64,000 bases of DNA. It comes from Pseudomonadota bacterium (lineage in GTDB: Bacteria; Pseudomonadota; Alphaproteobacteria; MPNO01; UBA2964). Shown here one piece after another: positions 1 to 38,362 of this stretch. The first letter of the stretch is position 1; every line of letters begins with the position of its first letter. A program made the position numbers and the translations under genes. Under the pieces are notes generated by a model. It ran no database searches, was not told where the DNA came from, and saw nothing but the letters and a program-made list of their open reading frames with translations. Location: positions 51,978-115,977 of the forward strand of contig JAYZFG010000007.1 of the NCBI GenBank assembly GCA_036336885.1, in the 5' to 3' direction.

Positions 1-1130
1 TTTGGAGTAGCCTTATCAACAGTGATAATCGTTACCCGCAAAAGGCCGGTAAGGGGTTCATGGAGCGAAACCTTTTTTACCCCTTTAATTCCAAGTGCAT
101 CTCGTAAATGGGCAAGAAAGAGCGGCTCATAAGCCACCCGCTTGATCACACTTGATTCGGAAGGCGCTGCTTGGCTGATGTAAGAGGTCAAAATAGCATT
201 TTTACGGTGAGTGATCGCCGTAACCTGCATTGGCATGTTAAATTCTTCTAATGCAACGTGACCATGGCTCTCGCCGAACGGGCCCTCTGGTTCAACCATT
301 TCTGTATCAATAACACCCTCTATCACCAATTCAGATTCAGCAGGTACCAGTAAATCAACGGTCCGTGCTTTTACTAAATTGATAGGGGCCCCGGCCAATC
401 CTCCAGCAACACCTACCTCATCCATGTCCAGGGGTAGTTTCTGTGGGCCCATAAATGCGACCGTCGGGGGACAACCTAGGACAATAGCCACGGGCATTTT
501 TTTATCACCTCGTGCCTGGTGCTTTTTGTAATGGGCGTAACCTCCAGCCCCTCCAACTCGGGTGGCCATCCGGACCACCATCCGGTCAGATGCTTTCAAT
601 GCTGCGCGATAGGTCCCCATATTTTGTACACCTGTTTCAGGATCCTGCGTGACCACGTTCGTCGAGGTGAGAGTCGGCGCAGCATCAAATCCCGGCGTTG
701 AGACCGGTATTGGTAAAGAGTCAATTCCGCACCCCTCTCCCAGAAGAGCCTCGTCTTCTATGATGACTTCGTGGCAGGGAGCTTCCTTTATAACAACCGG
801 ATCAATCGGGTTCGCTATTGCGTCATCCCATTTTTTTCCAATTCCCTCCACCGGTACACCCATGCCAATACTGTAAATGTCCTGATTTGCCGCTAGGGCG
901 CCTACAACGATTGGAAGTTCATATTTACGACCCTTGGCGTTGACAACATTCTTGAAAAGGAAAGCCCTACGTTCGCTTTCCTTCAAGCCGCCGACGAACT
1001 GCCAACGGACAAGTGCGTGCATTTCTGAATCTTTATCTACGGGTTCATTTACGGTAACGAGAAGCCCAGCTTTGTCTAAGGCTTCTATGTGATCATGAAG
1101 ATCGGGATAGTCTCGTCTAGGGCTACTCAT
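1..1130 (-). CDS. UbiD-family (prFMN-dependent) aromatic acid decarboxylase, paralog 1. The start codon is at 1130 and the C-terminus runs off the window edge, so it is absent from the ORF track.
   Basis: Manual translation of the reverse strand from the ATG at 1130 gives MSSPRRDYPDLHDHIEALDKAGLLVTVNEP...VTQDPETGVQNMGTYRAAL...GPFGESHGHVALEEF..., the typical UbiD/3-octaprenyl-4-hydroxybenzoate carboxy-lyase fold pattern. The frame stays open to position 1. Confidence 0.8.
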   Translation of the reverse strand, partial: MSSPRRDYPDLHDHIEALDKAGLLVTVNEPVDKDSEMHALVRWQFVGGLKESERRAFLFKNVVNAKGRKYELPIVVGALAANQDIYSIGMGVPVEGIGKKWDDAIANPIDPVVIKEAPCHEVIIEDEALLGEGCGIDSLPIPVSTPGFDAAPTLTSTNVVTQDPETGVQNMGTYRAALKASDRMVVRMATRVGGAGGYAHYKKHQARGDKKMPVAIVLGCPPTVAFMGPQKLPLDMDEVGVAGGLAGAPINLVKARTVDLLVPAESELVIEGVIDTEMVEPEGPFGESHGHVALEEFNMPMQVTAITHRKNAILTSYISQAAPSESSVIKRVAYEPLFLAHLRDALGIKGVKKVSLHEPLTGLLRVTIITVDKATP

Positions 1131-1291
1131 TTTTATAACATCTCTTGTGGTCAATTTTGCTTTGAACCTGCCATACCACACAGTGACGTGTTGACAACCC
1201 CCCAGTCGCTCCATATCCATGGAAGCAATTCTTTAACTACTGAGTAATTCTTTTTATAGGCGCGATATTTGAAGTTAGATTTATAGACACT

Positions 1292-2173
1292 ATGAAAGCC
1301 GCTCCTTTTGATTACATCCGAGTAAATACACTGGATGAAGCCTGTAAGGCTCTCTCTGAATCTGGTGAGGACGCCCGAATTATTGCGGGAGGTCAAACAC
1401 TTGTGCCTTTAATGGCAATGCGTCTCGCCCGCCCGTCACTTTTGATAGACATAAATGACGTCGAAGAACTCTCAGGTATTTCTATTGAAGGCGAACACCT
1501 TGTGATAAAGGCTGGAACAAGACAGGTAAAAGCACTCTCTTCGGAAATTGTCAGAAAAAAAATACCCTTACTTGCTGAAGCGTTATCTCATGTTGGCCAT
1601 ACTCAAACGCGGAACCTCGGAACCGTAGGCGGCAGCTTAGTGAATGCTGACCCCTCCGCTGAGATTCCTTTGATAGCACAAACCCTGGAAGCCACGATCC
1701 TAGTACAAAGCGTGCGCGGCAAAAGAAGTATAGCCGCTAGTGAGTTTTTTGAGGCAGCAATGGTAACCTGCTTAGCCCCAGACGAATGTCTCGTCGAAGT
1801 TTGTTTTCCAATCTGGCCCGAAAAGAGGAATGGTTATGGATTTCACGAAGTGAGTATAAGAGACAGCGACTACGCCCTGGCTGCTGCCGCCGCACAGCTG
1901 ACATTGGACGGTAGTGATAACTGTAAAAAACTATCGTTATCCATTTGCGGAGCGTCGCCCACAGCAATTCGCCTAAAACCAGTGGAGGAATCACTGTTAG
2001 GAAAACCCCCTCTAAATCAGGTTATTGTTGAAGCCTGCGAAATTATAGACGATTTAATAGACCCACAGGCTGACGTGCACGCGGATGCCAACTATCGTGG
2101 CCGGGTTGCAAAGGTAATGGCTCGACGGGCCATTTCCGATGCGCGAGATCGGGCAAAAGGTTTTTTAAAATGA
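1292..2173 (+). CDS. Molybdenum hydroxylase medium (FAD-binding) subunit, CoxM/XdhB-like, module 1
   Basis: 293 aa with the FAD_binding_5 pattern: N-terminal F.Y....LDEA..L..SG.DARIIAGGQTL, then GTVGGSL. It overlaps the next gene by 4 bp. Confidence 0.85.
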   Translation: MKAAPFDYIRVNTLDEACKALSESGEDARIIAGGQTLVPLMAMRLARPSLLIDINDVEELSGISIEGEHLVIKAGTRQVKALSSEIVRKKIPLLAEALSHVGHTQTRNLGTVGGSLVNADPSAEIPLIAQTLEATILVQSVRGKRSIAASEFFEAAMVTCLAPDECLVEVCFPIWPEKRNGYGFHEVSIRDSDYALAAAAAQLTLDGSDNCKKLSLSICGASPTAIRLKPVEESLLGKPPLNQVIVEACEIIDDLIDPQADVHADANYRGRVAKVMARRAISDARDRAKGFLK

Positions 2174-2652
2174 GCGAGTATAAAATTACTTTGGAGTTGA
2201 ACGGTCACGAAGTCTCTGGCAACGCCGAAGCTCGGATAACATTGGTAGATTTTCTCCGAGACAACCTAGATCAGACGGGAACGCACATCGGCTGTGAACA
2301 CGGTGTCTGCGGTGCCTGCTCGGTTATCTTCGATGGCCGCCCAATTCGATCTTGCCTAATTTATGCTGTCATGGCGAATGGTCATAAAATTACGACGGTC
2401 GAGGGTCTTGAAAAGACAAATGGTGCACTTAGTCCATTACAAGATGCATTTTGGGAAAATCACGCGATGCAGTGTGGCTACTGTACCCCGGGGATGCTAA
2501 TAGCTACCCATGCCTTATTGCAGGAAAATCCGGACCCCAGTGACGAAGAAATCCGTGAAGCCATTGGGGGAAATCTCTGCCGATGTACGGGATACCAACA
2601 GATTATAGAGGCTGTCCAATCCGCTGCGAAAAAAATGCGGGAGATACCCTGA
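2170..2652 (+). CDS. Molybdenum hydroxylase small (2Fe-2S) subunit, CoxS/XdhA-like, module 1
   Basis: 160 aa with the two [2Fe-2S] cysteine clusters GCEHGVCGACSV and QCGYCTPGM...CRCTGY. Confidence 0.9.
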   Translation: MSEYKITLELNGHEVSGNAEARITLVDFLRDNLDQTGTHIGCEHGVCGACSVIFDGRPIRSCLIYAVMANGHKITTVEGLEKTNGALSPLQDAFWENHAMQCGYCTPGMLIATHALLQENPDPSDEEIREAIGGNLCRCTGYQQIIEAVQSAAKKMREIP

Positions 2653-5045
2653 TGGCTAGTGCATCAACAAATAGCGGATTTCGGTATATAACAAAAAAGC
2701 GCCGAGTTACCGAAGACCGAAGATTTGTCACTGGGCGTGGTAACTTTGCTGCAGATTATAAATTACCGGGAATGCTACATGTTGCTATGGTTACAAGTCC
2801 CTACGCCTGCGCGGAAATTAAATCTATCGACCCTGATGCTGCATTAGAGATCCCCGGTGTCCGGTACGTCCTGACTGGGGCTGAATTATTTGAAAATATC
2901 AATCCGCTCCTCTCCGGTCTGGATCTCCCCAACGTCAAACGTATACCCCTCGCGCATGAGCGCGCTCGATATGCTGGTGAATGGGTGGCAGCCGTGGTCG
3001 CAGAAACGCGTCATATAGCCGAAGATGCCGCAGAACTGGTTCAAGTGGACTACAACCCCATTGATTTTGTTATTGACCCAGAAGAGGCTATGAAGCCAGG
3101 GGCACCTATGGTTCATCCACAGCATGGAAGCAACATTCTATGTGATAAAACTTGGAATTGGGGTGACGTCGATAAAGATTTTTCTGAGGCATCCAATACT
3201 ATAGCTTTTCGAGTGAAATGGAGTAGAAATTCAACCATTCCGATCGAAACATTTGTGGTTACAGCCAAGTGGGATGAGGGCAAGGAGGTGCTGGACGTTT
3301 GGGCATCCATCCAGATGCCTAAATACCCCGAGCAAATAGCTAGAGCATTAAGCCTGCCCGTTAACGCAATAAACGTACATTTCGATGTTGATGTTGGTGG
3401 CTCATATGGGCTAAAGCGCGGCATAAGGCAAACGGTTATTGTCAGCTATTTAACACGGAAGCTGCGTGCACCAGTTCGTTTTAATGAAGACCGACTGGAA
3501 AATTTATCTGGAGGCGAAATGCACGGCCCAGATCGAATTTTCGACATGGAAGCCGCATACGAGGATGATGGGGTTATTAGTTCAATTCGCATAAAAGCTA
3601 CAGATGATGCAGGGTGTTATCCTGGCCGCGCACCCCTTCAACTGGGAAAACCGGTCAGCGCAATTGTTGGCCCCTATCGTATAAAAAGCGCTTCTTACAA
3701 TGCAATCTCCGTGACAACAAATAAAACCAGTCAAGAAGCCGTTCGCGGATTTGGACAGGCACCGACAAATTTCGCCATCGAAACAATGGTAGACAAGGTC
3801 GCTTTTGAACTTGGACTGGGTCGGGACGAAATTAGGCGCCGAAACCTCATCCGGTCGGATGAGTTTCCTTATCGAATTCCATCAGGTTCTGAATACGACA
3901 GTGGAGATTATCATAATGTCCTCTCAAAGCTGCAGAAAACTGCTGACTGGGATGGACTTATTGCCAAAAGAAATAAATTGCGAAATTCCGGAAAACTGGC
4001 TGGCGTTGGACTTTCGACTTGTCTTGAACCCTCTGGAGGAAACTCATCATTTGAGCCTTTCCTCAACCCAAAAAATGATACAACCACGTGGATGGAATCA
4101 TGCTTGATCAAGGTTGATATGCTGGGGTCAATTACCGCTATGATGGGAACGTCTACCTCTGGTCAGGGCCACGAAACCTTACTCTCAACTGTAATAGGCG
4201 AAGTACTTGAACGCGATCCGGATAGTGTCCGCGCAGTTCACTCCGAATCTCTTGGGGCGTTACCTTCAAATAGCCCGGTTGGCAGCCGAATGGCTATTAT
4301 GCTCGGAGGGGCCGCCGCGGGCGCAGCAGATAAAATTAAGAAACAACTTCTTGAAATTGCGGCCCATAACTTTCAACTGCCTGTTGAACGGTTGGTTTAT
4401 ATTGACGGAGATATTTCAGTCGACGGTGACCCCGAAAAACTAATGACGTGGAACACGCTAGTGGATATAGCCCATCGCAATTATCACAAAATGCCATTGG
4501 GCTCAGAACCAGGGTTACAAGCTCAACACACCTGGGAGGTGCCGACCGGTGGTGCGTTACCAGCAGAAGACGGTACCGTTCAAATGTACCCCTGTTATGC
4601 TTTCGAGGCTCATATTCCCCTGGTTACCATTGATCCGGAAACAGGTCAGGTGGAGATTTTAGACTACTACATGGGTCATGATTGCGGAACCGTCTTAAAC
4701 CCAGATATCGTCCGGGGCATGACATTGGGTGGAATTGCCCACGGTATTGGTGCGGCGCTATATGAAAAATTTGAGTATGATGAGGGGGGGCAACATTTGT
4801 CGGGTTCTTTCATGGATTATCTTCTCCCATCATCTCATGAAATTCCTCATATCGAGATGATCAAACATTACACGCCATCACCGTTGACTACGTTCGGCCA
4901 AAAGGGTTCTGGCGAATCGGGATACCTCGGTACCCCGGCAGCTATTGCTGGCGCTGTCAATGATGCACTATCTCCACTTGGAAAATCTATCGAAACAATT
5001 CCAATGCGGGTTCGCGATATCGAATCCCTTATCAATAGTCAGTAG
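2652..5045 (+). CDS. Molybdenum hydroxylase large (molybdopterin-binding) subunit, xanthine dehydrogenase/aldehyde oxidase family, module 1
   Basis: ~797 aa containing GGSYGLK (equivalent to the GGGFGxK Mo-site region) and a C-terminal GESG motif. The start is set at ATG 2652, which overlaps the upstream TGA. The 2583 start in the ORF track would overlap the 2Fe-2S gene. Confidence 0.85.
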   Translation: MASASTNSGFRYITKKRRVTEDRRFVTGRGNFAADYKLPGMLHVAMVTSPYACAEIKSIDPDAALEIPGVRYVLTGAELFENINPLLSGLDLPNVKRIPLAHERARYAGEWVAAVVAETRHIAEDAAELVQVDYNPIDFVIDPEEAMKPGAPMVHPQHGSNILCDKTWNWGDVDKDFSEASNTIAFRVKWSRNSTIPIETFVVTAKWDEGKEVLDVWASIQMPKYPEQIARALSLPVNAINVHFDVDVGGSYGLKRGIRQTVIVSYLTRKLRAPVRFNEDRLENLSGGEMHGPDRIFDMEAAYEDDGVISSIRIKATDDAGCYPGRAPLQLGKPVSAIVGPYRIKSASYNAISVTTNKTSQEAVRGFGQAPTNFAIETMVDKVAFELGLGRDEIRRRNLIRSDEFPYRIPSGSEYDSGDYHNVLSKLQKTADWDGLIAKRNKLRNSGKLAGVGLSTCLEPSGGNSSFEPFLNPKNDTTTWMESCLIKVDMLGSITAMMGTSTSGQGHETLLSTVIGEVLERDPDSVRAVHSESLGALPSNSPVGSRMAIMLGGAAAGAADKIKKQLLEIAAHNFQLPVERLVYIDGDISVDGDPEKLMTWNTLVDIAHRNYHKMPLGSEPGLQAQHTWEVPTGGALPAEDGTVQMYPCYAFEAHIPLVTIDPETGQVEILDYYMGHDCGTVLNPDIVRGMTLGGIAHGIGAALYEKFEYDEGGQHLSGSFMDYLLPSSHEIPHIEMIKHYTPSPLTTFGQKGSGESGYLGTPAAIAGAVNDALSPLGKSIETIPMRVRDIESLINSQ

Positions 5046-5078: not shown

Positions 5079-5801
5079 ATGGGTAATGAACTTATAATTA
5101 AACAAAATGGACGGATTTTAGAAGCAACCTTCAACCGAGAGGATAATTCCTGCTCTGATGCCATGGCGGCTGAACTCTCGGCTTCCATGCTGTCAGCGCA
5201 TGAGACATCCGATATGGTTTTACTAAGGAGTACTGGGCCAGACTTTTGTACAGGTCGGGCCAGAAATGCTGACGCTGGAAAACCCGATCCAGAAGCATAC
5301 AAACGTAGACCGGAATACGACTCTATTTTCAACTGCTATAAAGCTATCCGAAATTCGCAAGTTCCGATCGTCGGTGTCATTGAAGGTCGCTGCATGGGAT
5401 TTGGAACAGCTGTGGCTTCGCTTTGTGACGTTTCTTTCGCCAGCAGCACCGCAACTTTCAATATTCCGGAAATAGAACACAACGTCATGCCTACTATGGT
5501 TATGTCGGCGCTATACGACCGCATAAATAGGAATGCAATTTTATGGATGACTTACACCGCACAATTTATCGATGCTGAACGGGCATTATCGTATGGCCTC
5601 GTCAGCCACGTGGTCAATGCCGATAGAGTAAATACCGAAGTCGACGAATTTTGCAAAATTCTTTTAAGCCGGCCCCGCCCGGCGATCTTGGGTCTCAAAG
5701 AATACCTCCACGTTGCTCCTAGGATGGACGAACTGGGCGCTATCGACTATGCGCGTGCCCTGCACTCCATGGTTAATACGGCGTCCGATATGAAAAAATA
5801 A
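5079..5801 (+). CDS. Enoyl-CoA hydratase/isomerase (crotonase-fold) family protein
   Basis: 240 aa with the crotonase oxyanion-hole-like segments TGPDFCTGRARN and GRCMGFGTAVASLCDV. There is an RBS-like GAGGGAA upstream. Confidence 0.7.
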   Translation: MGNELIIKQNGRILEATFNREDNSCSDAMAAELSASMLSAHETSDMVLLRSTGPDFCTGRARNADAGKPDPEAYKRRPEYDSIFNCYKAIRNSQVPIVGVIEGRCMGFGTAVASLCDVSFASSTATFNIPEIEHNVMPTMVMSALYDRINRNAILWMTYTAQFIDAERALSYGLVSHVVNADRVNTEVDEFCKILLSRPRPAILGLKEYLHVAPRMDELGAIDYARALHSMVNTASDMKK

Positions 5802-5809: not shown

Positions 5810-6805
5810 ATGATAATCGATACCCATGCCCACTACCTTCCACAAACGATGCTGGAAAACCTGAATAATCATCGGTCTATGTTCCCGAATATTGATTGTA
5901 TGAATGAGGACGGCATATGGAAACTGGGCTTTGCTGGAGGCTCTCTTACGCGCCCAATACTCCCGGGGCTACGTCAGGCGGAATCCAGGCTTCAATGGAT
6001 GAACGAACAAAAAATTGATGTAATGGTTTGCGGCGGTTGGCTCGATAGTTTTGGATACGAGATCCCTGATGATGAAGGGAAGCGTTGGAGCCAATTTATA
6101 AATGATCACCTCTTGCAAGCCTGCTCTGAAACCGAGCGGTTTGCTCCTCTCTGCAGTGTTCCCCTGCAAAATGGTAAGATGGCTGCCGAGATTTTAGAGC
6201 AAGCGATCGACACAGGATTTCATGGGGTAATGATTGGGACCCAACCGAAAGGTGGGGAGGGTAATTTAGATGATCCAATCCTTGACCCGTTTTGGGAGTT
6301 AGCGTCAGATCGGAAAGCAACCATTTATTTACATCCAATGTTTGGATGCGGCGATCCTCGTCTTCTCGATTACGGTCTGGTAAATACAGTTGGGCGCGGC
6401 CTGGACACAATTTCCGCCATGTCTCGACTAATATTTGCCGGACACTTGAAAAAATATCCGGGCATGAATTTTGTCCTTAGTCACGGTGGTGGCGGCCTAC
6501 CCTTTTTACTCGGTCGCATGCAGATGAATCACGACCAAAACCCTAAATTGGGAAACCCCCGGGAAAGCTTGGAGACATGCTATTACGATACAGTTGTCCA
6601 TGATGTGAAAACGTTAGAATTCGTATGCCGAATGTTTGGGCCTGATAGGGTAATGATGGGATCAGATTATCCCTTCAGCTTTGGTGACCTCGAACCATGC
6701 AAAATAATCGAAGAGAGCAAACTTGCGGATAAAGAAAAGCAAGATATTTTGGGTAACGTGGCAAAACGCGTGTTCCATATAGAAAATTGTAGTTGTAATC
6801 ATTAA
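5810..6805 (+). CDS. Amidohydrolase-2 family (ACMSD/LigW/gamma-resorcylate-type) metal-dependent decarboxylase or hydratase
   Basis: 331 aa with N-terminal MIIDTHAHYLP (HxH metal ligands), an internal LSHGGGGLP and a C-terminal MMGSDYPF (the Asp ligand). These are hallmarks of PF04909. Confidence 0.8.
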   Translation: MIIDTHAHYLPQTMLENLNNHRSMFPNIDCMNEDGIWKLGFAGGSLTRPILPGLRQAESRLQWMNEQKIDVMVCGGWLDSFGYEIPDDEGKRWSQFINDHLLQACSETERFAPLCSVPLQNGKMAAEILEQAIDTGFHGVMIGTQPKGGEGNLDDPILDPFWELASDRKATIYLHPMFGCGDPRLLDYGLVNTVGRGLDTISAMSRLIFAGHLKKYPGMNFVLSHGGGGLPFLLGRMQMNHDQNPKLGNPRESLETCYYDTVVHDVKTLEFVCRMFGPDRVMMGSDYPFSFGDLEPCKIIEESKLADKEKQDILGNVAKRVFHIENCSCNH

Positions 6806-6865: not shown

Positions 6866-8056
6866 GTGAAAATGAGCCGATTAGACCACTGTTACAATAT
6901 TGCAGACTTGAGAAATGCAGCCAAGAAACGCCTTCCACGGGGTGTATTTGATTATATTGACAAGGGAACCGAGGACATGATGTCTCTCGGTAATAACCGC
7001 AAGGCAATAACTGATATAAAATTACTGAACAAAGTCATTACGGATATTTCTGATGTAAAGCTAGATTCAAATATTTTTGATCGTGCCGCCGCAATGCCAC
7101 TTGCCATTGCACCAACCGGCACGGCGGGTTTGGCTTGGTATGAGGGTGAGTTTGAACTCGCAAAAGCAGCAGCGAAGACAGGTGTTCCCTTTACGCTGGC
7201 TACCGGCTCAAACACTCCGATGGAGAAACTTGCGAATGAGGCGGGCGGTCGACTGTGGATGCAACTATACATGTGGAAAGAAAAACACTACTCGGATGAC
7301 CTGGTCCGAAAAGCGGCACGAAACGGTTTTGAAGCATTACTATGGACGGTGGATATAGGACATGGTGCCAACCGGGAACATAACCTTCGTAACGGATTTG
7401 CTACGCCTTATGTTTTAAACACAAAGTCCGTCATTGACATGCTTCGTCACCCCGCATGGCTATCCACTGTTATGGGCCGATACTTCATAAATGGGGGTAT
7501 GCCGCGTCATGTTAACTATCCTGAAGGATATCAGATGCCAATTACTGGCAATGTGTCAAAAATGGAAGATAAAAAACCGACTACCAAACGGGCGGATAAG
7601 TTGTCTTGGGATGACGTTGACCGGTTAAGAGACATATTCCCAGGAAAGCTCTTAATAAAAGGTATTATGCGGCCAGATGATGCTGCTGAAGCTATTGAAC
7701 ATGGGGTGGATGGGATTGTTATATCAAATCATGGCGGACGTAATATGGACAGTGCGCCCGCTCCGATCCAAGTTCTTCCGGACATTGTAAAAGCTGTTGA
7801 AGGAAAAATGACAATTATTGTTGATAGCGGCGTGCGCCGTGGCAGTGACGTCGTAAAATATTTGGCGCTGGGCGCTGACGCAGTCCTTGCAGGACGTGCA
7901 ACACTCTATGGAACGGCAGCGGGTGGCGAAGCTGGGGCAATAAAAGCCATAAATCTCCTGAAAGATGAGATGAAAAGAACTATGGCCTATATTGGCACGC
8001 AACGCGTTACCGACATCAGTAGCGACGCTATTTGGAAGAATTCTTTACCCTCTTAG
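6866..8056 (+). CDS. FMN-dependent alpha-hydroxy acid dehydrogenase/oxidase (L-lactate, glycolate or mandelate dehydrogenase family)
   Basis: 396 aa with the VISNHGGRNMD active-site motif, DSGVRRGSDVVKYLALGA, and an inserted loop typical of the membrane-associated LldD/MdlB type. Confidence 0.85.
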   Translation: MKMSRLDHCYNIADLRNAAKKRLPRGVFDYIDKGTEDMMSLGNNRKAITDIKLLNKVITDISDVKLDSNIFDRAAAMPLAIAPTGTAGLAWYEGEFELAKAAAKTGVPFTLATGSNTPMEKLANEAGGRLWMQLYMWKEKHYSDDLVRKAARNGFEALLWTVDIGHGANREHNLRNGFATPYVLNTKSVIDMLRHPAWLSTVMGRYFINGGMPRHVNYPEGYQMPITGNVSKMEDKKPTTKRADKLSWDDVDRLRDIFPGKLLIKGIMRPDDAAEAIEHGVDGIVISNHGGRNMDSAPAPIQVLPDIVKAVEGKMTIIVDSGVRRGSDVVKYLALGADAVLAGRATLYGTAAGGEAGAIKAINLLKDEMKRTMAYIGTQRVTDISSDAIWKNSLPS

Positions 8057-22388: not shown

Positions 22389-22390
22389 GA

Positions 22391-30416: not shown

Positions 30417-31177
30417 AAGAAGAATTTGTCTTCTTGAAAATGAAAGATGGGATGATGAAAACCTTCATTGTTTTTCCCAATGATGGCCGAAAATATTCCC
30501 CTGTGATCCTATTTATGGATATCTGGGGTGTCCGCGAAGAACTTTGGAATATTGCTCGAAAAATTGCATCAAAAGGTTACTACGCTATTTTGCCTAATCT
30601 CTATTATCGGCAGGGTGATATCACAAACATCTTCTGGAATGATAAAGGTCAAATGATTTCGTTGCATAAACTCGATTCCAAAAATGAAAAAATTGTGCAC
30701 AGTCAGCGCAACAGACTTTCGACGACAATGATCCTATCTGACATAAACGACCTGATAGGCTTTATCGATACCCAAGATAACTGCAAGCCTGGCCCTATAG
30801 GCTCTGTGGGCTGGTGTATGGGGGGCTGGATTGGTCTCAAGTCAGCCGCGGAGTTTCCGGACCAATTTCAAGCCACCGCGACCCTGCACGCTACAAAACC
30901 AATATCCAATCAACCAAATTCACCCCATAGGTTTATAAAAAACATGAAAGGTGGACTTTACTGCGGCTGGGCCGAACTCGACCATTTATCGCCGCCGTCA
31001 ATGATACAAGACTTTGAAAAACTCCTAAAAAATCAACCTATCAATTACCGGAGCAATATGCATCGCACGGTTGAACACGGATATGCACTCCCCGACAGAG
31101 ACATATATGACCAAGAAGCCGCCAAAAAGGATTGGGTAGAAATTTTTGATCTTTACGAGCAATACTTAAATAACTGA
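30413..31177 (+). CDS. Dienelactone hydrolase family protein
   Basis: 254 aa with the nucleophile Cys in SVGWCMGGWIG and a conserved His near the C-terminus. It overlaps the upstream gene by 4 bp. Confidence 0.75.
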   Translation: MKEEFVFLKMKDGMMKTFIVFPNDGRKYSPVILFMDIWGVREELWNIARKIASKGYYAILPNLYYRQGDITNIFWNDKGQMISLHKLDSKNEKIVHSQRNRLSTTMILSDINDLIGFIDTQDNCKPGPIGSVGWCMGGWIGLKSAAEFPDQFQATATLHATKPISNQPNSPHRFIKNMKGGLYCGWAELDHLSPPSMIQDFEKLLKNQPINYRSNMHRTVEHGYALPDRDIYDQEAAKKDWVEIFDLYEQYLNN

Positions 31178-31256
31178 TAGGTTATTATCGTTTCTTCAAA
31201 TTACATTTGATCGCTAAAGTTTTTTTTGTTCAAATAAATTTTGCTATGGGGAAGAC

Positions 31257-32111
31257 ATGTCGATGAAAATAACTGCTTTCGACGCGCCCTTAGGCGCTGA
31301 AATAACGGGCATAGACATCCGCCATGAAATAAATGAAGAGGTTTTCTCTCATATTAAAACTGCTTGGCTCAAATACGGTGTCATAGTAATTCGTGAACAG
31401 TCCCTCAGTAAAAAAGAACAAATTAGGTTTGCCAAAAGATTTGGTAATGTGGGCGAGCGCGGCTTACCCGCAGAAAAACGAAAAGAGGTCGATGACTTCG
31501 GCGGGGCAATCATGATGATTACGAATAAAAAAAGTGCCGATGGAAAGTTCATCGGATCTGTCCCTGAGGGCGAATTGTGGTTTCACAGTGACTTGAGTTA
31601 TCGATTGATCCCTGACCAGGCAACCATGTTACATGCGTTAGCCTTGCCGACAAGTGGCGGCAACACGTTATTCTCAAACATGTATGACGCCTATGCAAAC
31701 ATACCACCTGAACTTAAACAAAGACTTCAAGGGAAAAAGGCATTACACGCCTACGATTTTGCAACTACAGCGGGCGTCAATTTAGACCGAGGGCTAGACA
31801 ACATCCAACATTATTGGCAACCAATCTTCGTTCAGCACCCCTTAACGCAACGAACAGCACTCTATGTAAGCCGGTTAATGAGTGCAAAAATAGAAGACTT
31901 GGAGCGCAACGAAAGTGACGAAATTCTTGAGACTTTATTTAAAATTATAGAGAACCCCAAGAGATTATATGAACATGTATGGAGTTTGGGTGACCTGGTA
32001 ATCTGTGACAACCGGTGCTGCACGCATGCTCGTCGAGATTTTCCACCTGATCAACTTCGCATGTTGCAACGGTGCACGGTACGCGGAGAACCAATGATTC
32101 CCGCCATTTAA
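31257..32111 (+). CDS. TauD/TfdA-family Fe(II)/2-oxoglutarate-dependent dioxygenase
   Basis: 284 aa: MSMKITAFDAPLGAEITGIDI..., WHSDLSY (HxD facial triad) and a distal His in CTHARRDF. Confidence 0.8.
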   Translation: MSMKITAFDAPLGAEITGIDIRHEINEEVFSHIKTAWLKYGVIVIREQSLSKKEQIRFAKRFGNVGERGLPAEKRKEVDDFGGAIMMITNKKSADGKFIGSVPEGELWFHSDLSYRLIPDQATMLHALALPTSGGNTLFSNMYDAYANIPPELKQRLQGKKALHAYDFATTAGVNLDRGLDNIQHYWQPIFVQHPLTQRTALYVSRLMSAKIEDLERNESDEILETLFKIIENPKRLYEHVWSLGDLVICDNRCCTHARRDFPPDQLRMLQRCTVRGEPMIPAI

Positions 32112-32114
32112 ATT

Positions 32115-32966
32115 TTATGCGGTCCTCTTGCTCCTGACCGCTAACACATACGAACTACCAAATATAATCATCGCCCCAAGCCAAGTCCAAAAATCTCCTG
32201 TTTCTGAAAACAAGATAAAAGCTGCCAAAGCCGTCATGGGCATACGCAGAAAATCGAAAGGCATCACTGCGCTAGCATCTGCTATAGCAAAAGAACGAGC
32301 ATAAGCATAGACCGCTATTGTGCCATTGACGCCAATCGCGATGAATATCGGAATATCTTCCAATGTCGGAGTAACCCAAAATATAAGTGCCGGGACCATT
32401 GCAATTGGAAACATTAATAAATTGAAATAGAATACCGATTGTTTGGCTGTATCCGTTGTCATCAAACGCTTTACACAGATATTAGAAACAGCGTAGGAAA
32501 ATGCGGACACCAAAACTAAAATTGTTGCCAACTCTACACTAATTACACCCGGCCTTATTATAACAAGTAAACCTAGAAACCCTATTATCACGGCCACCCA
32601 ACGCTCACTTGTCACGGTCTCTTTAAGAATTAACGCCGCCAGTAGGACAACGAATAATGGTTGTGTGAAACTCAGGGCCGTCACATCAGGAAGCGGTATT
32701 TTTGCGATTCCGTAAAATAATAACAAAACACCAATATATGAAAGCAGAGCTCTAAGGCAGTGTAAGGGCAGACGCTGCGTTTTAAGGGTTGAAAACCCTG
32801 CATTCATTGCCGGAGGCAGCAAAATAAAGACAGCGACAACATTTCGAAAAAACAGAATTTGGAAAGATGAATAATCATATGATAACTGGCGCACTAGGAT
32901 CGTCATGAACGTCCAACACAAACCTGCAAGGACCATCCAGGCCGCACCCCGCAGATTACTATTCAT
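32115..32966 (-). CDS. DMT-superfamily (EamA-like) transporter
   Basis: 283 aa, 10 TM segments, duplicated EamA domain. Confidence 0.7.
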   Translation of the reverse strand: MNSNLRGAAWMVLAGLCWTFMTILVRQLSYDYSSFQILFFRNVVAVFILLPPAMNAGFSTLKTQRLPLHCLRALLSYIGVLLLFYGIAKIPLPDVTALSFTQPLFVVLLAALILKETVTSERWVAVIIGFLGLLVIIRPGVISVELATILVLVSAFSYAVSNICVKRLMTTDTAKQSVFYFNLLMFPIAMVPALIFWVTPTLEDIPIFIAIGVNGTIAVYAYARSFAIADASAVMPFDFLRMPMTALAAFILFSETGDFWTWLGAMIIFGSSYVLAVRSKRTA

Positions 32967-32993: not shown

Positions 32994-34451
32994 TTATTTT
33001 CCGCCTTTGACGAAACTATCCGGCAAAACGCTGCTCCATTTAGCGCGAATCCGAGAATCAAGATCGGGACTATTTCGTGCTACGATTGGAAAAGTCTCAC
33101 GACGTTTGAATGGTATGCAAGCGTCAACCACTACACGCGCGTTACGGCGATCTGTTTCATCATCGAAACACATTGGATCAAGGTGAGAACTCCACCCCCC
33201 CGAAATAACATCAACATCATCGCGGGGATCACAACGTGTACACATAGACCAGAGAACGTCATTTATGTTGGTAGGGTCTATGTCTTCGTCAACAACCACC
33301 GTCCAGCGATTGCAATAGGCTCCTGCTAGGCATTGCGATGCCACCAAACCAGCCTGCTTAGCGTGACCCCCATATAATTGTTTTATTGCGACTGTGAGCC
33401 AGAAACGGCTACCCCCGGCTTCATGCGCCCATACTCCTTTTATCTCAGGAATTCCTGCAGCTTCAAGCTGTGACCAAACAGCACCACAGCGATAATGACC
33501 CAAATAATACGTATTATCATTTGGAGGGATGGCCGGTACAGCCCCCATAAGAACGGGGTTGTTTCGGTGCATCATTGTCTCAACCCGAATGGCAGGTTCC
33601 AGTCTTTGTCCACCGGCATAATACCCTGTCCACTCACCGAGAGGCCCTTCGACAACTTCATCCTCTGGATGTATATAACCTTCAAGGGAGATCTCCGCAT
33701 TTGCTGGGACGGGCAGACCGGTTTTGGGCATATTTATAATTTCAATTGCCTCATCAAATATTCCACCAGCCGCTTCATATTCACTCTTACCATAAGGAAT
33801 TTCGAGACCAGCAAGCATAAATAAAGCAGGATGCATGCCGAAAACAGCTGCAACAGGGCAAGGCTCGCCTCGCGAATGATACTTCTCCATAATTAACCGA
33901 CCATGCTTGCCCGGAGACATCATCACGGAGGCCACATCAGGTTCATGGACCTGCATCCGATAGGTACCGTAGTTAATCCAACCACTATCGGGGTCCTTCA
34001 TAACCACCATGCACGCCGTTCCAATAAAGTGACCGCCGTCATGCTCATGCCATACGGGAGTTGGTATCGACGTCAGGTCAACATCTCCACCCTCGGTGAC
34101 ATTATCAAGGAGAGGTCCTCCATTAACTTGTTTTGGCGGCACTGAGGGGGCATCACCCATATACTTCCGCCACCACTGTACCAACTCCATCTCGGAAGCA
34201 TCCTCTGGTAGACCCAGGGCCAAATTTATACGAGGTGTTGAGGTCAGGAGGTTAGATAGAACTCGATGGCCATTTGGAAAACCCGGAATATCGTCAAACA
34301 TAAGCGCCGGATTGCCCATCTTGCGCTGAACAATATCAACGATACCACCAATATCTTCCTTTGGTTCTGCACCTGAAATTTTATGCAATTCCCCTGCCGC
34401 ATCAATTTCATCGATCCAGTTCCGTAAATCTTTATTGGCCACCGTGGTCAC
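32994..34451 (-). CDS. UbiD-family decarboxylase, paralog 4
   Basis: 485 aa: ...VMKDPDSGWINYGTYRMQV...GPLGEWTGYYAGG...WTVVVDEDIDPTNINDVLWSM... Among the in-window paralogs it is closest to paralog 1. Confidence 0.85.
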   Translation of the reverse strand: MTTVANKDLRNWIDEIDAAGELHKISGAEPKEDIGGIVDIVQRKMGNPALMFDDIPGFPNGHRVLSNLLTSTPRINLALGLPEDASEMELVQWWRKYMGDAPSVPPKQVNGGPLLDNVTEGGDVDLTSIPTPVWHEHDGGHFIGTACMVVMKDPDSGWINYGTYRMQVHEPDVASVMMSPGKHGRLIMEKYHSRGEPCPVAAVFGMHPALFMLAGLEIPYGKSEYEAAGGIFDEAIEIINMPKTGLPVPANAEISLEGYIHPEDEVVEGPLGEWTGYYAGGQRLEPAIRVETMMHRNNPVLMGAVPAIPPNDNTYYLGHYRCGAVWSQLEAAGIPEIKGVWAHEAGGSRFWLTVAIKQLYGGHAKQAGLVASQCLAGAYCNRWTVVVDEDIDPTNINDVLWSMCTRCDPRDDVDVISGGWSSHLDPMCFDDETDRRNARVVVDACIPFKRRETFPIVARNSPDLDSRIRAKWSSVLPDSFVKGGK

Positions 34452-34616
34452 TCCGAGCGGTTTGAGAATGTATTATGGTTAGCCTGTTTTAACGAAAATG
34501 AAAATGGATTTAAAAAAAATAATTGGTCAGTACCTTGAACTTAGATGGCGAAGATGGGAGCATCGCCGCGATAAATCATAGGCCGACTGAACCTAAAACT
34601 GAAGAAGGAGAAAGGC

Positions 34617-35486
34617 GTGAAGGCGCCCAAGTTTAATTATATAAAAGCAAAATCAAGACACCAGGCGCTCGAATTATTAGACAGCCTTGGAGATGAGGGC
34701 CGAATAATTGCGGGAGGCCAAAGTTTAATGCCAACCTTGAATATGCGTCTCTCACAACCAGATACGCTGATTGATATCAACCAAATACCTGACCTCCAAA
34801 GAATAGCTGTAGAAAATGATATCGTTAAAATTGGTGCCCTATGCCGCCACGCAGACATTGCTCAATCACCAATTATTAATGAACACCTATCACTAATCTC
34901 TCAGGCAATGTACCACGTCGCTCATGTTGCTGTACGTAATCGAGGTACAATCGGTGGAAGCATTGCCCTCGCCGACCCAGCCGCAGAGCTGCCTGCATGT
35001 GCAGTGGCACTCGGTGCTACTTTAGCCGTCGAAAGCATAAATGGGCGACGAGAAATAGCAGCTGAAGACTTTTTCAAAGGCCTATATGAAACTGCTCGCC
35101 AATCTAATGAACTTTTGGTAGAGATTATGATTCCAAGGGAAAAGTCGGACGACGTCTCCGTATTTATGGAGTTAGCCCAACGACACGGTGACTTTGCCAT
35201 CGCAGGACTGGCGTGCTTAGCAAGGGTCAAAAACAAAAGTTTTGAGAAATTACGATTAGTGTATTTTGGTAGTGAGGACAAACCCACACTAGCCAGAAAG
35301 ACCGCAGATGCCGTAATCGGAAAGACTTGGTCGGAGAAGCGTCGAGCAGCCGCAATTGATGCGTTAGCTGACGACCTAGACCCCATGGAGAATCTACAAG
35401 GTAGTGCCAGTATGAAGCTGCATTTACAAAAGGTACTTACCGGTAGAGTTCTTGATACCGTCATAGATCGTGGGGGGATAGAATGA
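34617..35486 (+). CDS. Molybdenum hydroxylase medium (FAD-binding) subunit, module 2
   Basis: 289 aa paralogous to 1292..2173 (RIIAGGQSLMPTLNMRL, GTIGGSIA). It overlaps the next gene by 4 bp. Confidence 0.85.
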   Translation: MKAPKFNYIKAKSRHQALELLDSLGDEGRIIAGGQSLMPTLNMRLSQPDTLIDINQIPDLQRIAVENDIVKIGALCRHADIAQSPIINEHLSLISQAMYHVAHVAVRNRGTIGGSIALADPAAELPACAVALGATLAVESINGRREIAAEDFFKGLYETARQSNELLVEIMIPREKSDDVSVFMELAQRHGDFAIAGLACLARVKNKSFEKLRLVYFGSEDKPTLARKTADAVIGKTWSEKRRAAAIDALADDLDPMENLQGSASMKLHLQKVLTGRVLDTVIDRGGIE

Positions 35487-35971
35487 TGGACGAAATCTCG
35501 ATGGAAATTTCACTCACAGTCAACGGTGAAAAAATCACCAAGACCGTCCCCGTTCGCCAACACCTTGTTGACTTTCTTCGAATAGAGCTGGGACTCACAG
35601 GTTCTCACCTTGGCTGTGAACACGGTATCTGTGGCGCATGTTCAATTCGGGTTGATGGAGCAGTTGTCAGAGGCTGCCTCATGCTGGCAGTTCAGGCTGA
35701 TGGAACCGAAGTTTTTACTATAGAGGGCCTCACGGAAACGGGCGAAATAGCGGATCTGCAAAATAATTTTGTCGAAAGAAACGCTATGCAATGCGGTTAT
35801 TGTACTCCTGGCATGCTGGTGACCGCTGCGGAATTACTACGGGACCTCAAGCCCCGCAGTCGAGAAGATATCCGAAATCATTTATCTGGTAACTTCTGCA
35901 GATGTACAGGTTATCACGCCATCGTCGATGCAGTCGAAAAAACCATCAATAAACGCCTTGAGGACAGTTAA
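35483..35971 (+). CDS. Molybdenum hydroxylase small (2Fe-2S) subunit, module 2
   Basis: GCEHGICGACSI and QCGYCTPGM...CRCTGY. Confidence 0.9.
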   Translation: MMDEISMEISLTVNGEKITKTVPVRQHLVDFLRIELGLTGSHLGCEHGICGACSIRVDGAVVRGCLMLAVQADGTEVFTIEGLTETGEIADLQNNFVERNAMQCGYCTPGMLVTAAELLRDLKPRSREDIRNHLSGNFCRCTGYHAIVDAVEKTINKRLEDS

Positions 35972-35974
35972 GCT

Positions 35975-38362
35975 ATGAATAAGGAAAATGAACTTTATCT
36001 GCTTGACCGTCCAAATAGTTATGTTGGACGCACCCTATCGCGGGAAGCCGCAAAACGTGCTGTTGCAGGAAGGGGACGTTATACAGACGATATTTCGCCT
36101 AACCGAACGCTGCATGCAACCTTTGTCCGAAGCCCCTACGGACATGCAAAAATTTTATCTATTGACGTTGATGCCGCCAAGAAACACCCAGGTGTCGCCC
36201 TCGTAATGACAGGTGTAGAACTTTCAGAAATGTGCACGGGGCCCTGGGTTGGAACACTAGTCTGTTTTGAGGGCATGAAGTCTGCACCACAATACGCGAT
36301 GGCGGTTGACCGTACATGCTGGCAAGGTGAGCCCATTGTCATGGTTGTCGCGAGTAGCCGTGCGGTAGCAGAAGATGCCGCCGAGTTAGTCTCTGTAGAG
36401 TATGAAGAATTGGCTGTCGTAGTCGATAAGGAAACTGCGCTGGACCCAAAAACACCAGTAATTCATCCTGAGTTGGGGGACAACCTTGCCTTTGAAAAAA
36501 CGATCGAAACCGGCGATGTTGAAACAGCGACTTCCGAGGCTGATATTGTAATCGAAGATACCTTTACCTTTGGAAGACATACCGCAGTGAGTTTGGAACC
36601 TCGAGCTCTATTGGCTGAGTATGACCCTGGCACCGAGAGGCTCACGATACATACTAGCAGCCAATGCCCACACATGATCCAGGCCGTCTTTGCCCGCACC
36701 TTAGGAATTCCAGAGCATAATGTCCGAATAGTAGCCGCTGATGTTGGGGGTTCTTTTGGCCTAAAGATCCACACCTTTGGCGACGAAGTCGCAACGACTG
36801 CGGCATCGATAAAGCTAGGAAGGCCAGTAAAGTTTATTGCTGATCGTTTAGAGAGTTTTGCAACTGACATTCACGCGAGGGAAAACCGCGTAAAGGGGCG
36901 TATCGCGGTCACTAAAGATGGGATTATCACCTCCATGGATATAGATATACGCTCCGGTGCGGGTGCATATTCTCAGTATCCCCGCACCAGTGTTTTCGAG
37001 GCCAACCAAATATTAAATATCACTGGCGGTCCGTACGCGCATGAAAATTACCGCGCAACCACTCAAGTCGTTTATTTGAATAAAGTTCCAACATCACAAT
37101 ATAGAGCTGTTGGACATCCCATCGGAAATTCAGTAGGCGAGTCTTTGGTTGACCAGGCTGCCGCCGCTTGTGGGATTGACCCAATGGAATTTCGGCGTCG
37201 AAACGTCATGCATGACGATTCATATCCAAGGACCAGTGCCGCAGGTATCGAGATGCAAGATTTATCTCATCAAAAATGTCTCGAAACGCTTGTCGACCGC
37301 ATGAACTATGATGAACTGCGTCAGGAACAATCCAAATATAGAGAAAAGGGTATCCAGCGGGGTATTGGTATCGCAGCCTTCATCAAAGGCACCGCTCCGG
37401 GTCCCTCCGGATACTATGGTGCAGGGGGTGCTCCAATAGCAACGCAAGATGCCTGCACCGTTAAGTTGGAACCCTCGGGCGGTGTGTTATGCATGGTTGG
37501 TGTAACTGATCAGGGCCAGGGTGTTGACACCGTGATGGGTCAAATAACTGCTGCAACATTGGGAGTACCGATAGAGTCTGTGCGGGTGATAGAGGGTGAT
37601 ACCGATGCTGTACCATATGGCGGTGGGACTTATGCCTCACGCGCTACTGCTATCGGCGGAGAGGCAACTTACCAAGCAGCTCAGAAGCTGAGGGAAGAGA
37701 TCCTTGAAATCGCAGGTTCATTACTTCAAACGGACACCGATAAACTAGACATTATCGACGGGAACATAGTGGATAAAGGCGATACAACATCACGAATTTC
37801 GTTGGCCGAGATAGGACGGATAGGTCACTTTCAGGTTTCAGAATTGCCAAACCATATTCAACCTGTACTTTCCGCAACCCATCGTTTTCGTCTTCGTGAT
37901 GCACTTTATATTTTCACTAATGGTATACAGGGTGCGTATGTCGAGGTTGATGTCGATACAGGTTTTATAAAACTCCTGAACCACTGGGTTATTGAAGATT
38001 GTGGCCGCGTGATCAACCCACAGCTCGCCGATGAACAAGTGCGAGGTGGGTGTGTTCAAGGGCTTGGGGGCGCACTTTACGAAGAATGTGTCTATGATGA
38101 TGCTGGACAATTGCAGAACGCAACTCTTGCTGATTATTTAACGCCCATGGCTGGTGAAATGCCGGATATAGAAGTAGCTCATATTCAAACCCATACAAGT
38201 GTCTCCGAACTGGGCGCAAAAGGTGTTGGAGAATCGGGGACTGGGGCTGCTCCTGCCGTCGTTATGAACGCTGTTAATGATGCAATACGTCCTTTTGGGG
38301 GAAAGGTCACATGCCAACCGATGTCACCTCAAATTATCCTTCAGGCCTTGGGCAAGATATAA
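35975..38362 (+). CDS. Molybdenum hydroxylase large subunit, module 2
   Basis: 795 aa containing GGSFGLK and a C-terminal GAKGVGESG. It is paralogous to 2652..5045. Confidence 0.85.
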   Translation: MNKENELYLLDRPNSYVGRTLSREAAKRAVAGRGRYTDDISPNRTLHATFVRSPYGHAKILSIDVDAAKKHPGVALVMTGVELSEMCTGPWVGTLVCFEGMKSAPQYAMAVDRTCWQGEPIVMVVASSRAVAEDAAELVSVEYEELAVVVDKETALDPKTPVIHPELGDNLAFEKTIETGDVETATSEADIVIEDTFTFGRHTAVSLEPRALLAEYDPGTERLTIHTSSQCPHMIQAVFARTLGIPEHNVRIVAADVGGSFGLKIHTFGDEVATTAASIKLGRPVKFIADRLESFATDIHARENRVKGRIAVTKDGIITSMDIDIRSGAGAYSQYPRTSVFEANQILNITGGPYAHENYRATTQVVYLNKVPTSQYRAVGHPIGNSVGESLVDQAAAACGIDPMEFRRRNVMHDDSYPRTSAAGIEMQDLSHQKCLETLVDRMNYDELRQEQSKYREKGIQRGIGIAAFIKGTAPGPSGYYGAGGAPIATQDACTVKLEPSGGVLCMVGVTDQGQGVDTVMGQITAATLGVPIESVRVIEGDTDAVPYGGGTYASRATAIGGEATYQAAQKLREEILEIAGSLLQTDTDKLDIIDGNIVDKGDTTSRISLAEIGRIGHFQVSELPNHIQPVLSATHRFRLRDALYIFTNGIQGAYVEVDVDTGFIKLLNHWVIEDCGRVINPQLADEQVRGGCVQGLGGALYEECVYDDAGQLQNATLADYLTPMAGEMPDIEVAHIQTHTSVSELGAKGVGESGTGAAPAVVMNAVNDAIRPFGGKVTCQPMSPQIILQALGKI

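Follow-up and report, generated by a model that had tools for sequence, protein, structure and literature searches.

Two divergent UbiD and molybdenum hydroxylase gene cassettes of Alphaproteobacteria with a probable role in the breakdown of aromatic or heteroaromatic carboxylic acids

A 64-kb stretch of alphaproteobacterial DNA (contig JAYZFG010000007.1 of assembly GCA_036336885.1, positions 51,978 to 115,977; hereafter the window) contains two loci in which a gene for a UbiD-family decarboxylase diverges from the genes for the FAD-binding, 2Fe-2S and molybdopterin-binding subunits of a molybdenum (Mo) hydroxylase. Module 1 occupies positions 1..5045 and module 2 positions 32994..38362. The two modules probably represent independent catabolic cassettes that degrade imported carboxylic acids of aromatic or heteroaromatic structure aerobically, each combining a UbiD decarboxylase with a Mo hydroxylase. 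This assignment draws on the families of the encoded proteins, their catalytic motifs, a linkage conserved across many genomes and the carboxylate transporters encoded nearby.

The layout of both modules was established from the open reading frame (ORF) listing and from Pfam scans, which covered 1..43.6 kb of the window and ten selected ORFs between 43.6 and 64 kb. In module 1, the gene for UbiD1, a long UbiD-family decarboxylase, lies on the minus strand (3..1130, region 1..1130; UbiD_N and UbiD) and is truncated by the window start, so that 376 of 551 codons (the 5' part) are visible. The complete protein of 551 aa is encoded on a 100%-identical contig (L054; compared loci are cited as L plus a number), found through an exact look-up of the FAD-binding subunit of module 1; a dctP gene is located just downstream of ubiD1 in this contig. 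The same kind of look-up with UbiD2 (GTG start) gave no match. A divergent spacer of 161 bp (1131..1291) separates ubiD1 from three plus-strand genes, which encode the FAD-binding subunit (1292..2173; FAD_binding_5 and CO_deh_flav_C), the 2Fe-2S subunit (2170..2652; Fer2 and Fer2_2) and the molybdopterin-binding large subunit Mo1 (2652..5045, 797 aa; Ald_Xan_dh_C, MoCoBD_1 and MoCoBD_2). The start of Mo1 is placed at 2583 in the ORF listing and at 2652, yielding the 797-aa product, in public gene calls. On the same strand follow a crotonase/enoyl-CoA-hydratase-family protein (ECH; 5079..5801; ECH_1), an ACMSD-like metal-dependent protein of the Amidohydro_2 family (5810..6805; Amidohydro_2) and an FMN-dependent alpha-hydroxy-acid dehydrogenase (6866..8056; FMN_dh).

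In module 2, the PhdA-like decarboxylase UbiD2 (32994..34451, minus strand, 485 aa) is separated by a divergent spacer of 165 bp (34452..34616) from the plus-strand genes for the FAD-binding subunit (34617..35486), the 2Fe-2S subunit (35483..35971) and the large subunit Mo2 (35975..38362, 795 aa), all identified by Pfam. An EamA-type drug/metabolite transporter (EamA/DMT; 32115..32966, minus strand; EamA) is encoded immediately downstream of ubiD2. ORFs and Pfam domains confirm the shared divergent plan that an earlier note on this DNA, made from the sequence alone, had described for both loci. The 4-bp overlaps given in that note are present at the FAD/2Fe-2S junction of each module; the 2Fe-2S and Mo genes overlap by 1 bp in module 1 and lie 3 bp apart in module 2. 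Inverted repeats were sought in both spacers and none were found, nor was any likeness between the two spacers, or a shared operator, apparent by eye, without alignment.

Corresponding proteins of the two modules share 29% (UbiD), 34% (FAD-binding subunit), 49% (2Fe-2S subunit) and 30% (Mo subunit) identity, which rules out a recent duplication of one module. The earlier note was hence right to regard them as diverged paralogs and not as recent copies, and its term "duplicated module" does not apply: judged from their sequences, the modules are two separate, non-orthologous systems, each with its own orthologues elsewhere. Four UbiD genes are located in the window, two of which (UbiD3 and UbiD4, see below) have no Mo-hydroxylase partner and had escaped the earlier note. 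By rough arithmetic, with four UbiD genes among about 58 genes, the chance of finding a UbiD gene as divergent neighbor of both trios is about 0.004. The adjacency exceeds chance, and its conservation across genomes is far stronger evidence than this estimate.

The large subunits Mo1 and Mo2 affiliate by sequence with the CO dehydrogenase/quinoline 2-oxidoreductase (Qor) branch of the xanthine oxidase family. The closest PDB entries for Mo1 were mycobacterial CoxL (8uem) and QorL (1t3q), and the closest entry for Mo2 was QorL (1t3q, E 3e-133); 6-hydroxypseudooxynicotine dehydrogenase (7dqx) was also among the closest solved relatives of both. Mo1 and Mo2 carry the catalytic glutamate within a GESG motif near the C-terminus, and the FAD, 2x[2Fe-2S] and molybdopterin cofactors are assigned by Pfam to separate subunits in both modules. 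The three-subunit composition and the catalytic glutamate are thus common to Mo1, Mo2, Qor and 7dqx; the matches are at the level of the family only, and the UbiD, Amidohydro_2 and ECH partners are not those of the qor and nicotine clusters. Form I aerobic CO dehydrogenases are marked by an active-site loop AYXCSFR with a copper-binding cysteine. CSFR is absent from both proteins, the corresponding residues being AVRGFGQ in Mo1 and QYRAVGH in Mo2. No protein of either module reached the cut-off of an NCBIfam equivalog, including the CO dehydrogenase models, and accessories of the coxD/E/F/G type were not detected in the window, as tblastn yielded no CoxG or XdhC match and the Pfam scans none either. 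By the missing loop, cox accessories and equivalogs, these are not ordinary CO or xanthine dehydrogenases.

The domains UbiD_N, UbiD and UbiD_C were identified by Pfam in UbiD2, UbiD3 and UbiD4, and the C-terminal domain of UbiD1 is annotated on the L054 product. The catalytic-loop motif (E/D-G-P-F-G-E/D) reads EGPFGE in UbiD1, EGPLGE in UbiD2, DGPFAE in UbiD3 and EGRFGE in UbiD4. For UbiD2, PDB entry 7PDA stood out with an E value of 1e-113, the next best entry reaching 1e-50; the alignment comprises 463 positions, about 43% of them identical. This structure is the phenazine-1-carboxylate decarboxylase PhdA (PMC10850782). No other characterised protein comes nearly as close to UbiD2 as PhdA of Mycolicibacterium fortuitum, which acts on a fused N-heteroaromatic acid, although 43% identity is too low to fix the substrate of UbiD2. 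UbiD1 has no close characterised relative; its PDB matches were HmfF (E 5e-31) and Fdc1 (E 9e-30). The best PDB match of the Amidohydro_2 protein was ACMSD (E 3e-34), and a PLSDB search with it yielded no close orthologue (33% identity or less). The ECH protein is a generic member of the crotonase family.

Several public automatic names of related proteins appear wrong or over-specific. Relatives of Mo1 are listed as "2-furoyl-CoA dehydrogenase large subunit", "aldehyde oxidase" or "3-oxo-Delta1-steroid hydratase/dehydrogenase large subunit", and relatives of UbiD1 and UbiD3 as "4-hydroxy-3-polyprenylbenzoate decarboxylase" or "ubiquinone biosynthesis protein UbiD". The proteins of the window itself are deposited at NCBI as MEE26546xx, all generically named.

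The pairing of UbiD2 with a Mo hydroxylase extends well beyond this genome. Gene neighbors in relatives were called by tblastn with the window proteins, and the adjacency recurred, in several arrangements of the genes, in metagenomes and in the genomes of many Alphaproteobacteria. Genes for COQ7, DsbB, a glutathione S-transferase and cytochrome c' in the window point to a proteobacterium, and its closest genome relatives are uncultured marine Alphaproteobacteria labelled Rhodospirillaceae, with L001 being 99% identical. A search of genome contigs with UbiD2 gave 53 loci, almost every one of which carries the label Alphaproteobacteria. The orthologous divergent module, with Mo2 at least 73% identical, is present in the syntenic marine relatives L001-L009, L041, L049 and L050, and again, amid different flanking genes, in L017, L019, L023 and L045. 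UbiD2 relatives of 63-75% identity directly adjoin trios of the xanthine dehydrogenase (XDH) family which are only about 30% identical to Mo2 and which are arranged in FAD-Mo-FeS, co-directional or convergent order; the partnership thus outlasts a replacement of the partner. Beside the UbiD2 relatives of L044, L046 and L047, the gene for the 2Fe-2S subunit alone was detected, the ground beyond it being left unexamined. Where UbiD2-relative loci extended for at least 3 kb on both sides, the raw counts gave an XDH-family gene in 27 of 36 loci and within 600 bp in 22 of them. The EamA gene beside ubiD2 is kept in the marine relatives. In both modules, the identity of UbiD correlates with that of the orthologous Mo subunit linked to it (r = 0.97), a co-variation which points to long co-inheritance of the two proteins.

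Some relatives of module 2 differ in gene content. In L009 (7259..11446), the Mo2 orthologue (78%) is directly divergent from UbiD2, without genes for the FAD-binding and 2Fe-2S subunits. In L018 (9033..11437), the gene for the FAD-binding subunit (57%) alone remains beside the UbiD2 relative. Plasmid 2 of Aromatoleum aromaticum EbN1 (L153, 7920..12174) encodes a PhdA-like UbiD, 43% identical to UbiD2, which is flanked by two sets of UbiX and UbiD of the phthaloyl-CoA decarboxylase type; an ABC transporter, a porin and a DMT/EamA transporter adjoin, the last echoing the EamA gene beside ubiD2. On the EamA side of module 2, comparison of window positions 30413..32966 with L001 (11486..12561) revealed an indel directly beside the module: the tauD gene (31257..32111 in the window) is absent from this 99%-identical relative, and the EamA match is shrunk to about 270 bp at 84% identity. 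At the other end, a DUF427 ORF (38277..38981, plus strand) overlaps the 3' end of the Mo2 gene, its real start being probably later, and is followed by an HNH endonuclease gene (38999..39559, minus strand); both are kept beside module 2 in marine relatives. The gap between the Mo2 and DUF427 genes amounts to about 1.1 kb in L002, L004, L005, L007 and others, and in L002 it contains a GDSL-lipase gene (386 aa).

For module 1, a metagenome scan with UbiD1 yielded 531 relatives, the best 80 of which share 70-97% identity and stem from marine, soil, freshwater and sediment samples. Of 25 well-flanked loci of UbiD1 relatives, 20 contained genes of the XDH family, for the most part orthologues of Mo1 (55-88% identity), and Amidohydro_2 (47-81%), ECH and DctP or TctC were also linked. 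A second UbiD1 paralogue is frequent in these loci, and at least three gene orders occur. From the side of UbiD1, the Mo1 cluster is almost always close by. To avoid a bias towards UbiD, nine loci were picked via Mo1 homologues (61-77% identity). UbiD genes, numbering between zero and four per locus, are present in four of these nine: one in L138, along with Amidohydro_2, ECH, DctP, DctQ and DctM; two in L150, along with Amidohydro_2, TctC, TctAB and UbiX; four in tandem in L140, where no other linked genes were noted; and four tandem UbiD-sized genes in L155, with a Pfam match recorded for one and UbiX nearby. The remaining five contain no UbiD gene: L151, L152 and L156 hold Amidohydro_2 and a transporter, L157 holds Amidohydro_2, and L142 from Burkholderia sp. 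PAMC 26561 encodes an ECH protein, adjoining the Mo1 orthologue, which is 72% identical to that of the window.

Amidohydro_2, on which the earlier note is silent, is hence the steadier partner of Mo1, occurring in six of the nine loci. We infer that the Mo hydroxylase and the ACMSD-like enzyme form the core of module 1 and that decarboxylases of the UbiD1 type are peripheral, funnelling carboxylated precursors into it; the variable copy number of UbiD (0-4), set against the recurrence of Amidohydro_2, fits such a role. The functional coupling of UbiD and Mo hydroxylase that the earlier note had read from the conserved pair is backed by the conserved adjacency in both modules, but it is optional when viewed from Mo1 (4/9). 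The FMN-dependent dehydrogenase is 87-90% identical in L059, L060 and L063 and absent from L138, and is a lineage-specific accessory of module 1. UbiD3 did not appear in the module 1 loci of relatives.

The tandem arrays of L140 (1055..8460) and L155 (715..7460) each comprise four UbiD-sized genes (544-564 aa) divergent from a Mo1-type trio (65-66%). All four genes of L140 have UbiD Pfam matches, and a TPP enzyme is encoded beyond them. Such arrays suggest that several related substrates are funnelled into one hydroxylase. In L059 (2742..4274, minus strand), and likewise in L060 and L063, a gene for an Amidohydro_1 protein (510 aa) lies between the Amidohydro_2 and FMN-dehydrogenase genes. This insertion occurs in relatives of 87-91% identity, is absent from the window and recalls, by description only, the cytosine-deaminase-like pterin deaminase of lumazine clusters in Alphaproteobacteria. 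A UbiX gene is part of the cluster in L144, L150 and L155. The first of these, on a plasmid of Neorhizobium petrolearium OS53, encodes a UbiD with 55% identity to UbiD1 divergent from an XDH trio, in addition to a second Mo subunit, UbiX, TctC and a TPP enzyme. In Paraburkholderia caribensis MBA4, UbiD1-like, UbiD2-like and XDH-trio genes are found within 20 kb. Cultured carriers of related clusters thus include N. petrolearium OS53, Sinorhizobium fredii NGR234, Burkholderia sp. PAMC 26561 and P. caribensis MBA4, and genetic experiments are therefore feasible. UbiD matches on Leisingera plasmids were dismissed as relatives, their UbiD/UbiX genes being located beside U32-peptidase and SCP2 genes. 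On the 70-kb plasmid of Leisingera caerulea (L147, 8447..13093), a UbiD/UbiX pair, two U32 peptidase genes and an SCP2 gene make up a set which looks like one for O2-independent ubiquinone biosynthesis (UbiT/U/V).

The substrates of the modules are probably free acids, given the dctP gene beside ubiD1 in L054, the tripartite ATP-independent periplasmic (TRAP) and tripartite tricarboxylate (TTT) transporters of the relatives, and the missing CoA ligase. The earlier note had reached the same view, and had likewise seen no CoA ligase: neither the Pfam scans (1..43.6 kb and the ten later ORFs) nor a whole-window tblastn search with an HmfD proxy revealed an AMP-binding CoA ligase. Substrates, step order and electron acceptor are matters of inference. 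In module 1, the TRAP transporter, whose binding protein is encoded just past the window start, would import a free, probably polycarboxylated acid, from which UbiD1 would remove a carboxyl group and so funnel the compound into the core pathway. The Mo1 enzyme would then place a water-derived hydroxyl group on an electron-poor ring carbon, and the ACMSD-like Amidohydro_2 protein may catalyze a metal-dependent decarboxylation or else a hydrolytic ring opening or rearrangement, with the crotonase-family protein and the FMN-dependent dehydrogenase handling the products downstream. In module 2, the PhdA-like UbiD2 and the quinoline-oxidoreductase-like Mo2 would decarboxylate and hydroxylate a fused N-heteroaromatic acid, such as a quinoline, quinoxaline or phenazine carboxylate, together with the EamA transporter.

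A parallel to the proposed core of module 1 exists in picolinate catabolism, where PicC acts as an Amidohydro_2 decarboxylase. By description only, the hydroxylation of a pyridine carboxylic acid by a Mo enzyme and its subsequent decarboxylation by an Amidohydro_2 protein match the combination of Mo1 with the ACMSD-like protein; the pic cluster differs in having no UbiD. The Mo dehydrogenase of this cluster is PicA (bioRxiv 10.1101/530550).

Several observations weigh against this reading of the modules. Mo1 orthologues without UbiD (L142, L151, L152, L156 and L157) show that the coupling is not obligatory. At least 11 UbiD2 relatives lack an XDH gene within 10 kb. Plasmids of Aromatoleum and Streptomyces encode PhdA-like proteins 42-43% identical to UbiD2, likewise without an XDH-family neighbor, so that the pairing with a Qor-like trio marks an alphaproteobacterial subclade. 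The adjacency figures given above are raw counts without a background rate of XDH-family genes in these genomes, and the compared loci are best similarity matches, mostly from metagenome-assembled genomes and metagenomes, which are not phylogenetically independent. Crotonase-family proteins usually act on CoA thioesters, and the ECH protein sits awkwardly with a pathway of free acids. Finally, tblastn yielded no match for UbiX, XdhC, CoxG, GMC oxidase or the CoA ligase anywhere in the 64-kb window, and with UbiX, XdhC and CoxG missing the supply of cofactors must come from elsewhere in the genome.

The main rival to a hydroxylase role would treat the Mo enzymes as aldehyde oxidoreductases, which convert an aromatic aldehyde to the acid before UbiD releases CO2. 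Many members of the xanthine oxidase family are aldehyde oxidoreductases, and PaoC and the Desulfovibrio aldehyde oxidoreductases were among the PDB matches of Mo2. Subunits of the archaeal glyceraldehyde dehydrogenase were the best NCBIfam models for Mo2 (569 bits) and for the FAD-binding and 2Fe-2S subunits of both modules, all below cut-off; for Mo1, the group-5 CO dehydrogenase model (442 bits) and the glyceraldehyde dehydrogenase model (422 bits) both remained below it. However, the scores to QorL, CoxL and 6-hydroxypseudooxynicotine dehydrogenase were equal or higher. The linked TRAP and TTT binding proteins point to the import of an acid and not of an aldehyde, and the ACMSD-like partner suits a chemistry of hydroxylation and subsequent decarboxylation, as in picolinate catabolism. 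We therefore regard an aldehyde oxidoreductase function as unlikely, though it deserves to be kept in mind, and prefer the hydroxylation of imported acids.

The furan pathway, in which HmfFG and HmfABC combine a UbiD with a three-subunit Mo dehydrogenase, is encoded by hmfABCDE and hmfFGH in Cupriavidus basilensis HMF14 and serves the degradation of 5-hydroxymethylfurfural (HMF) and furoate. The earlier note had named it as the closest analogy, and the likeness in logic is real: in the HMF pathway as well, a UbiD channels a dicarboxylate into a route which a three-subunit dehydrogenase of the xanthine oxidoreductase (XOR) family opens, with a crotonase-family enzyme coming next. For direct comparison, proxies of the hmf and lumazine clusters were used which were recognised by their architecture and are not sequences of the experimentally studied strains. 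A replicon of Cupriavidus sp. KK10 with the full hmf architecture encodes UbiD, UbiX, TctC, a GMC oxidase, an AMP ligase, a Mo subunit with a CoxG fusion, an FeS subunit, ECH and an MFS protein, all by Pfam, and the FAD-binding subunit by tblastn. Identities to this proxy amount to 34% for Mo1, 33% for Mo2, 31% for UbiD1, 30% for UbiD2, 35% for UbiD3 and 25% for ECH (E 1e-6), that is 25-35% overall and no orthology. Mo1 is 37% identical to other XDH proteins on plasmids, so that the KK10 proteins are no closer than other members of the family.

That module 1 is itself a version of the HMF/furoate pathway, with a 2,5-furandicarboxylate decarboxylase (HmfF), a furoyl-CoA dehydrogenase (HmfABC) and a hydrolase (HmfE), is accordingly very improbable, and the assignment of either module to Hmf was rejected by this comparison. 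The JGI labels of many Mo1 relatives ("2-furoyl-CoA dehydrogenase large subunit"), the position of a crotonase-family gene after that of Mo1, as hmfE follows hmfABCD, and HmfF as best PDB match of UbiD1 speak for it. Yet this match is about equal to that with Fdc1, and the identities of Mo1, UbiD1 and ECH to KK10 are no better than those to unrelated family members (37%). In addition, the large subunit of KK10 has a CoxG fusion and Mo1 and Mo2 have no CoxG domain, the genes are arranged in another order, and the window lacks CoA ligase, UbiX and GMC oxidase but encodes an ACMSD-like Amidohydro_2 protein. An AMP-binding gene of the HmfD type was not found in L138 either.

An absence of any functional coupling would mean that UbiD and XDH paralogues are merely packed into a catabolic island, or that the trios resemble form II CO dehydrogenases with an unrelated role. 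Such a view would fit the presence of as many as four UbiD genes within 64 kb, of which two have no Mo partner, the Mo1 orthologues that often occur without UbiD, and the high local density of XDH-family genes elsewhere, such as up to four large subunits in 21 kb of a soil alphaproteobacterial locus (L036). It leaves the immediate adjacency in 22 of 36 loci and the co-varying UbiD and Mo identities (r = 0.97) to coincidence, and the linkage survives different gene orders, flanks and XDH subfamilies; we hence give it very little credence.

The same three protein families also meet in the lumazine/pterin degradation cluster I of Cupriavidus sp. LA-1 (Doi, Maeda & Takaya 2025; PMC12391406). This cluster comprises the three-subunit XOR-family LuDH, the Amidohydro_2-family isomerase DHLI (alpha/beta), a GTP-binding helper, a deaminase and the UbiD xanthine-8-carboxylate decarboxylase XCDC with UbiX, and the type of XOR in lumazine clusters varies by lineage (PMC12391406). 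As in module 1, a Mo hydroxylase, an Amidohydro_2 protein and a UbiD are encoded in one cluster, where they hydroxylate, rearrange and decarboxylate an N-heterocycle, and the XOR type is swapped between lineages as it is around the UbiD2 relatives. Module 1 differs by the addition of a crotonase-family protein and of TRAP or TTT carboxylate transporters. As a proxy, plasmid p1 of Burkholderia sp. RPE67 encodes two tandem amidohydrolases, UbiD, UbiX, a CobW-like GTPase and a xanthine permease; the beta amidohydrolase has His6 and His8 and the alpha copy does not, which matches the published description (PMC12391406). The four UbiD proteins of the window share 26-32% identity with the XCDC proxy, the Amidohydro_2 protein of the window had no BLASTP match to the DHLI alpha and beta proxies, and a second DHLI subunit, a CobW-like GTPase, UbiX, a deaminase and a xanthine permease were without match in the window. 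That one of the modules is this cluster is scarcely credible and was rejected on this comparison, despite the shared families, the lineage-dependent XOR type and the Amidohydro_1 genes of L059, L060 and L063 that could resemble the pterin deaminase, because the window holds a single, unrelated-looking Amidohydro_2 protein and neither GTPase, UbiX nor deaminase.

A literature search for a description of the two modules found none. The earlier note had suggested a system not yet described; this does not extend to the combination of Mo hydroxylase, amidohydrolase-2 and UbiD, whose logic was published in 2025 (PMC12391406), but the modules are not that cluster. The general design is thus precedented by Hmf and by lumazine degradation, and the cassettes themselves are uncharacterised, which also holds for the core of Mo1 and ACMSD-like protein and for the subfamily of long UbiD1-type proteins with its tandem arrays. 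"CoxL-like" Mo enzymes and UbiD paralogues of unassigned function are abundant in marine and soil bacteria, and their automatic names mislead. Two such pairs are recognised here as conserved cassettes distinct from both characterised examples. They are testable units in the search for new substrates of prenylated-FMN (prFMN) decarboxylases, enzymes sought as biocatalysts of carboxylation and decarboxylation, and they could help to explain the consumption of carboxyl-rich aromatic and heterocyclic compounds by abundant pelagic Alphaproteobacteria.

As a tentative extension, to which we assign a minor but appreciable likelihood as a whole, the clusters of UbiD1, Mo1 and Amidohydro_2 with TRAP or TTT transporters and one to four long UbiDs (545-564 aa) might constitute a widespread, uncharacterised route for ring acids. 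Marine and soil Alphaproteobacteria might use it to decarboxylate polycarboxylated aromatic or N-heteroaromatic acids, for example polycarboxylates of pyridine, pteridine or benzene from dissolved organic matter, and the carboxyl removal might be followed by hydroxylation and then ring opening. If this route exists, prFMN enzymes would gain a new class of substrates, and the "CoxL-like" Mo hydroxylases a new functional clade.

Catabolic genes fill the first 38 kb of the window according to Pfam. UbiD3 (8053..9453, minus strand; Pfam) is encoded next to the FMN-dependent dehydrogenase. UbiD4 (13451..15040, minus strand, 529 aa; Pfam) has a C-terminal extension of about 100 aa and is divergent from genes for a Glyoxalase_3 protein (15119..16009) and an FAD_binding_2 protein (16013..17425), followed by an AbrB-family membrane protein (17475..18548). 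An FAD_binding_2 gene is also part of the Mo1-type cluster of L151. Between the catabolic genes, an ABC-3 permease, an ABC ATPase and a Fur-family regulator (9551..11649, minus strand) resemble a metal uptake operon of the Znu/Zur type, whose link to the zinc-dependent Amidohydro_2 protein is probably a coincidence. Beyond about 39 kb mostly other genes are found, such as those for the HNH endonuclease, a carboxylesterase, a DNA glycosylase and a NUDIX protein and, further on, housekeeping genes such as those for an electron transfer flavoprotein, a thiolase, ArgH and LysA.

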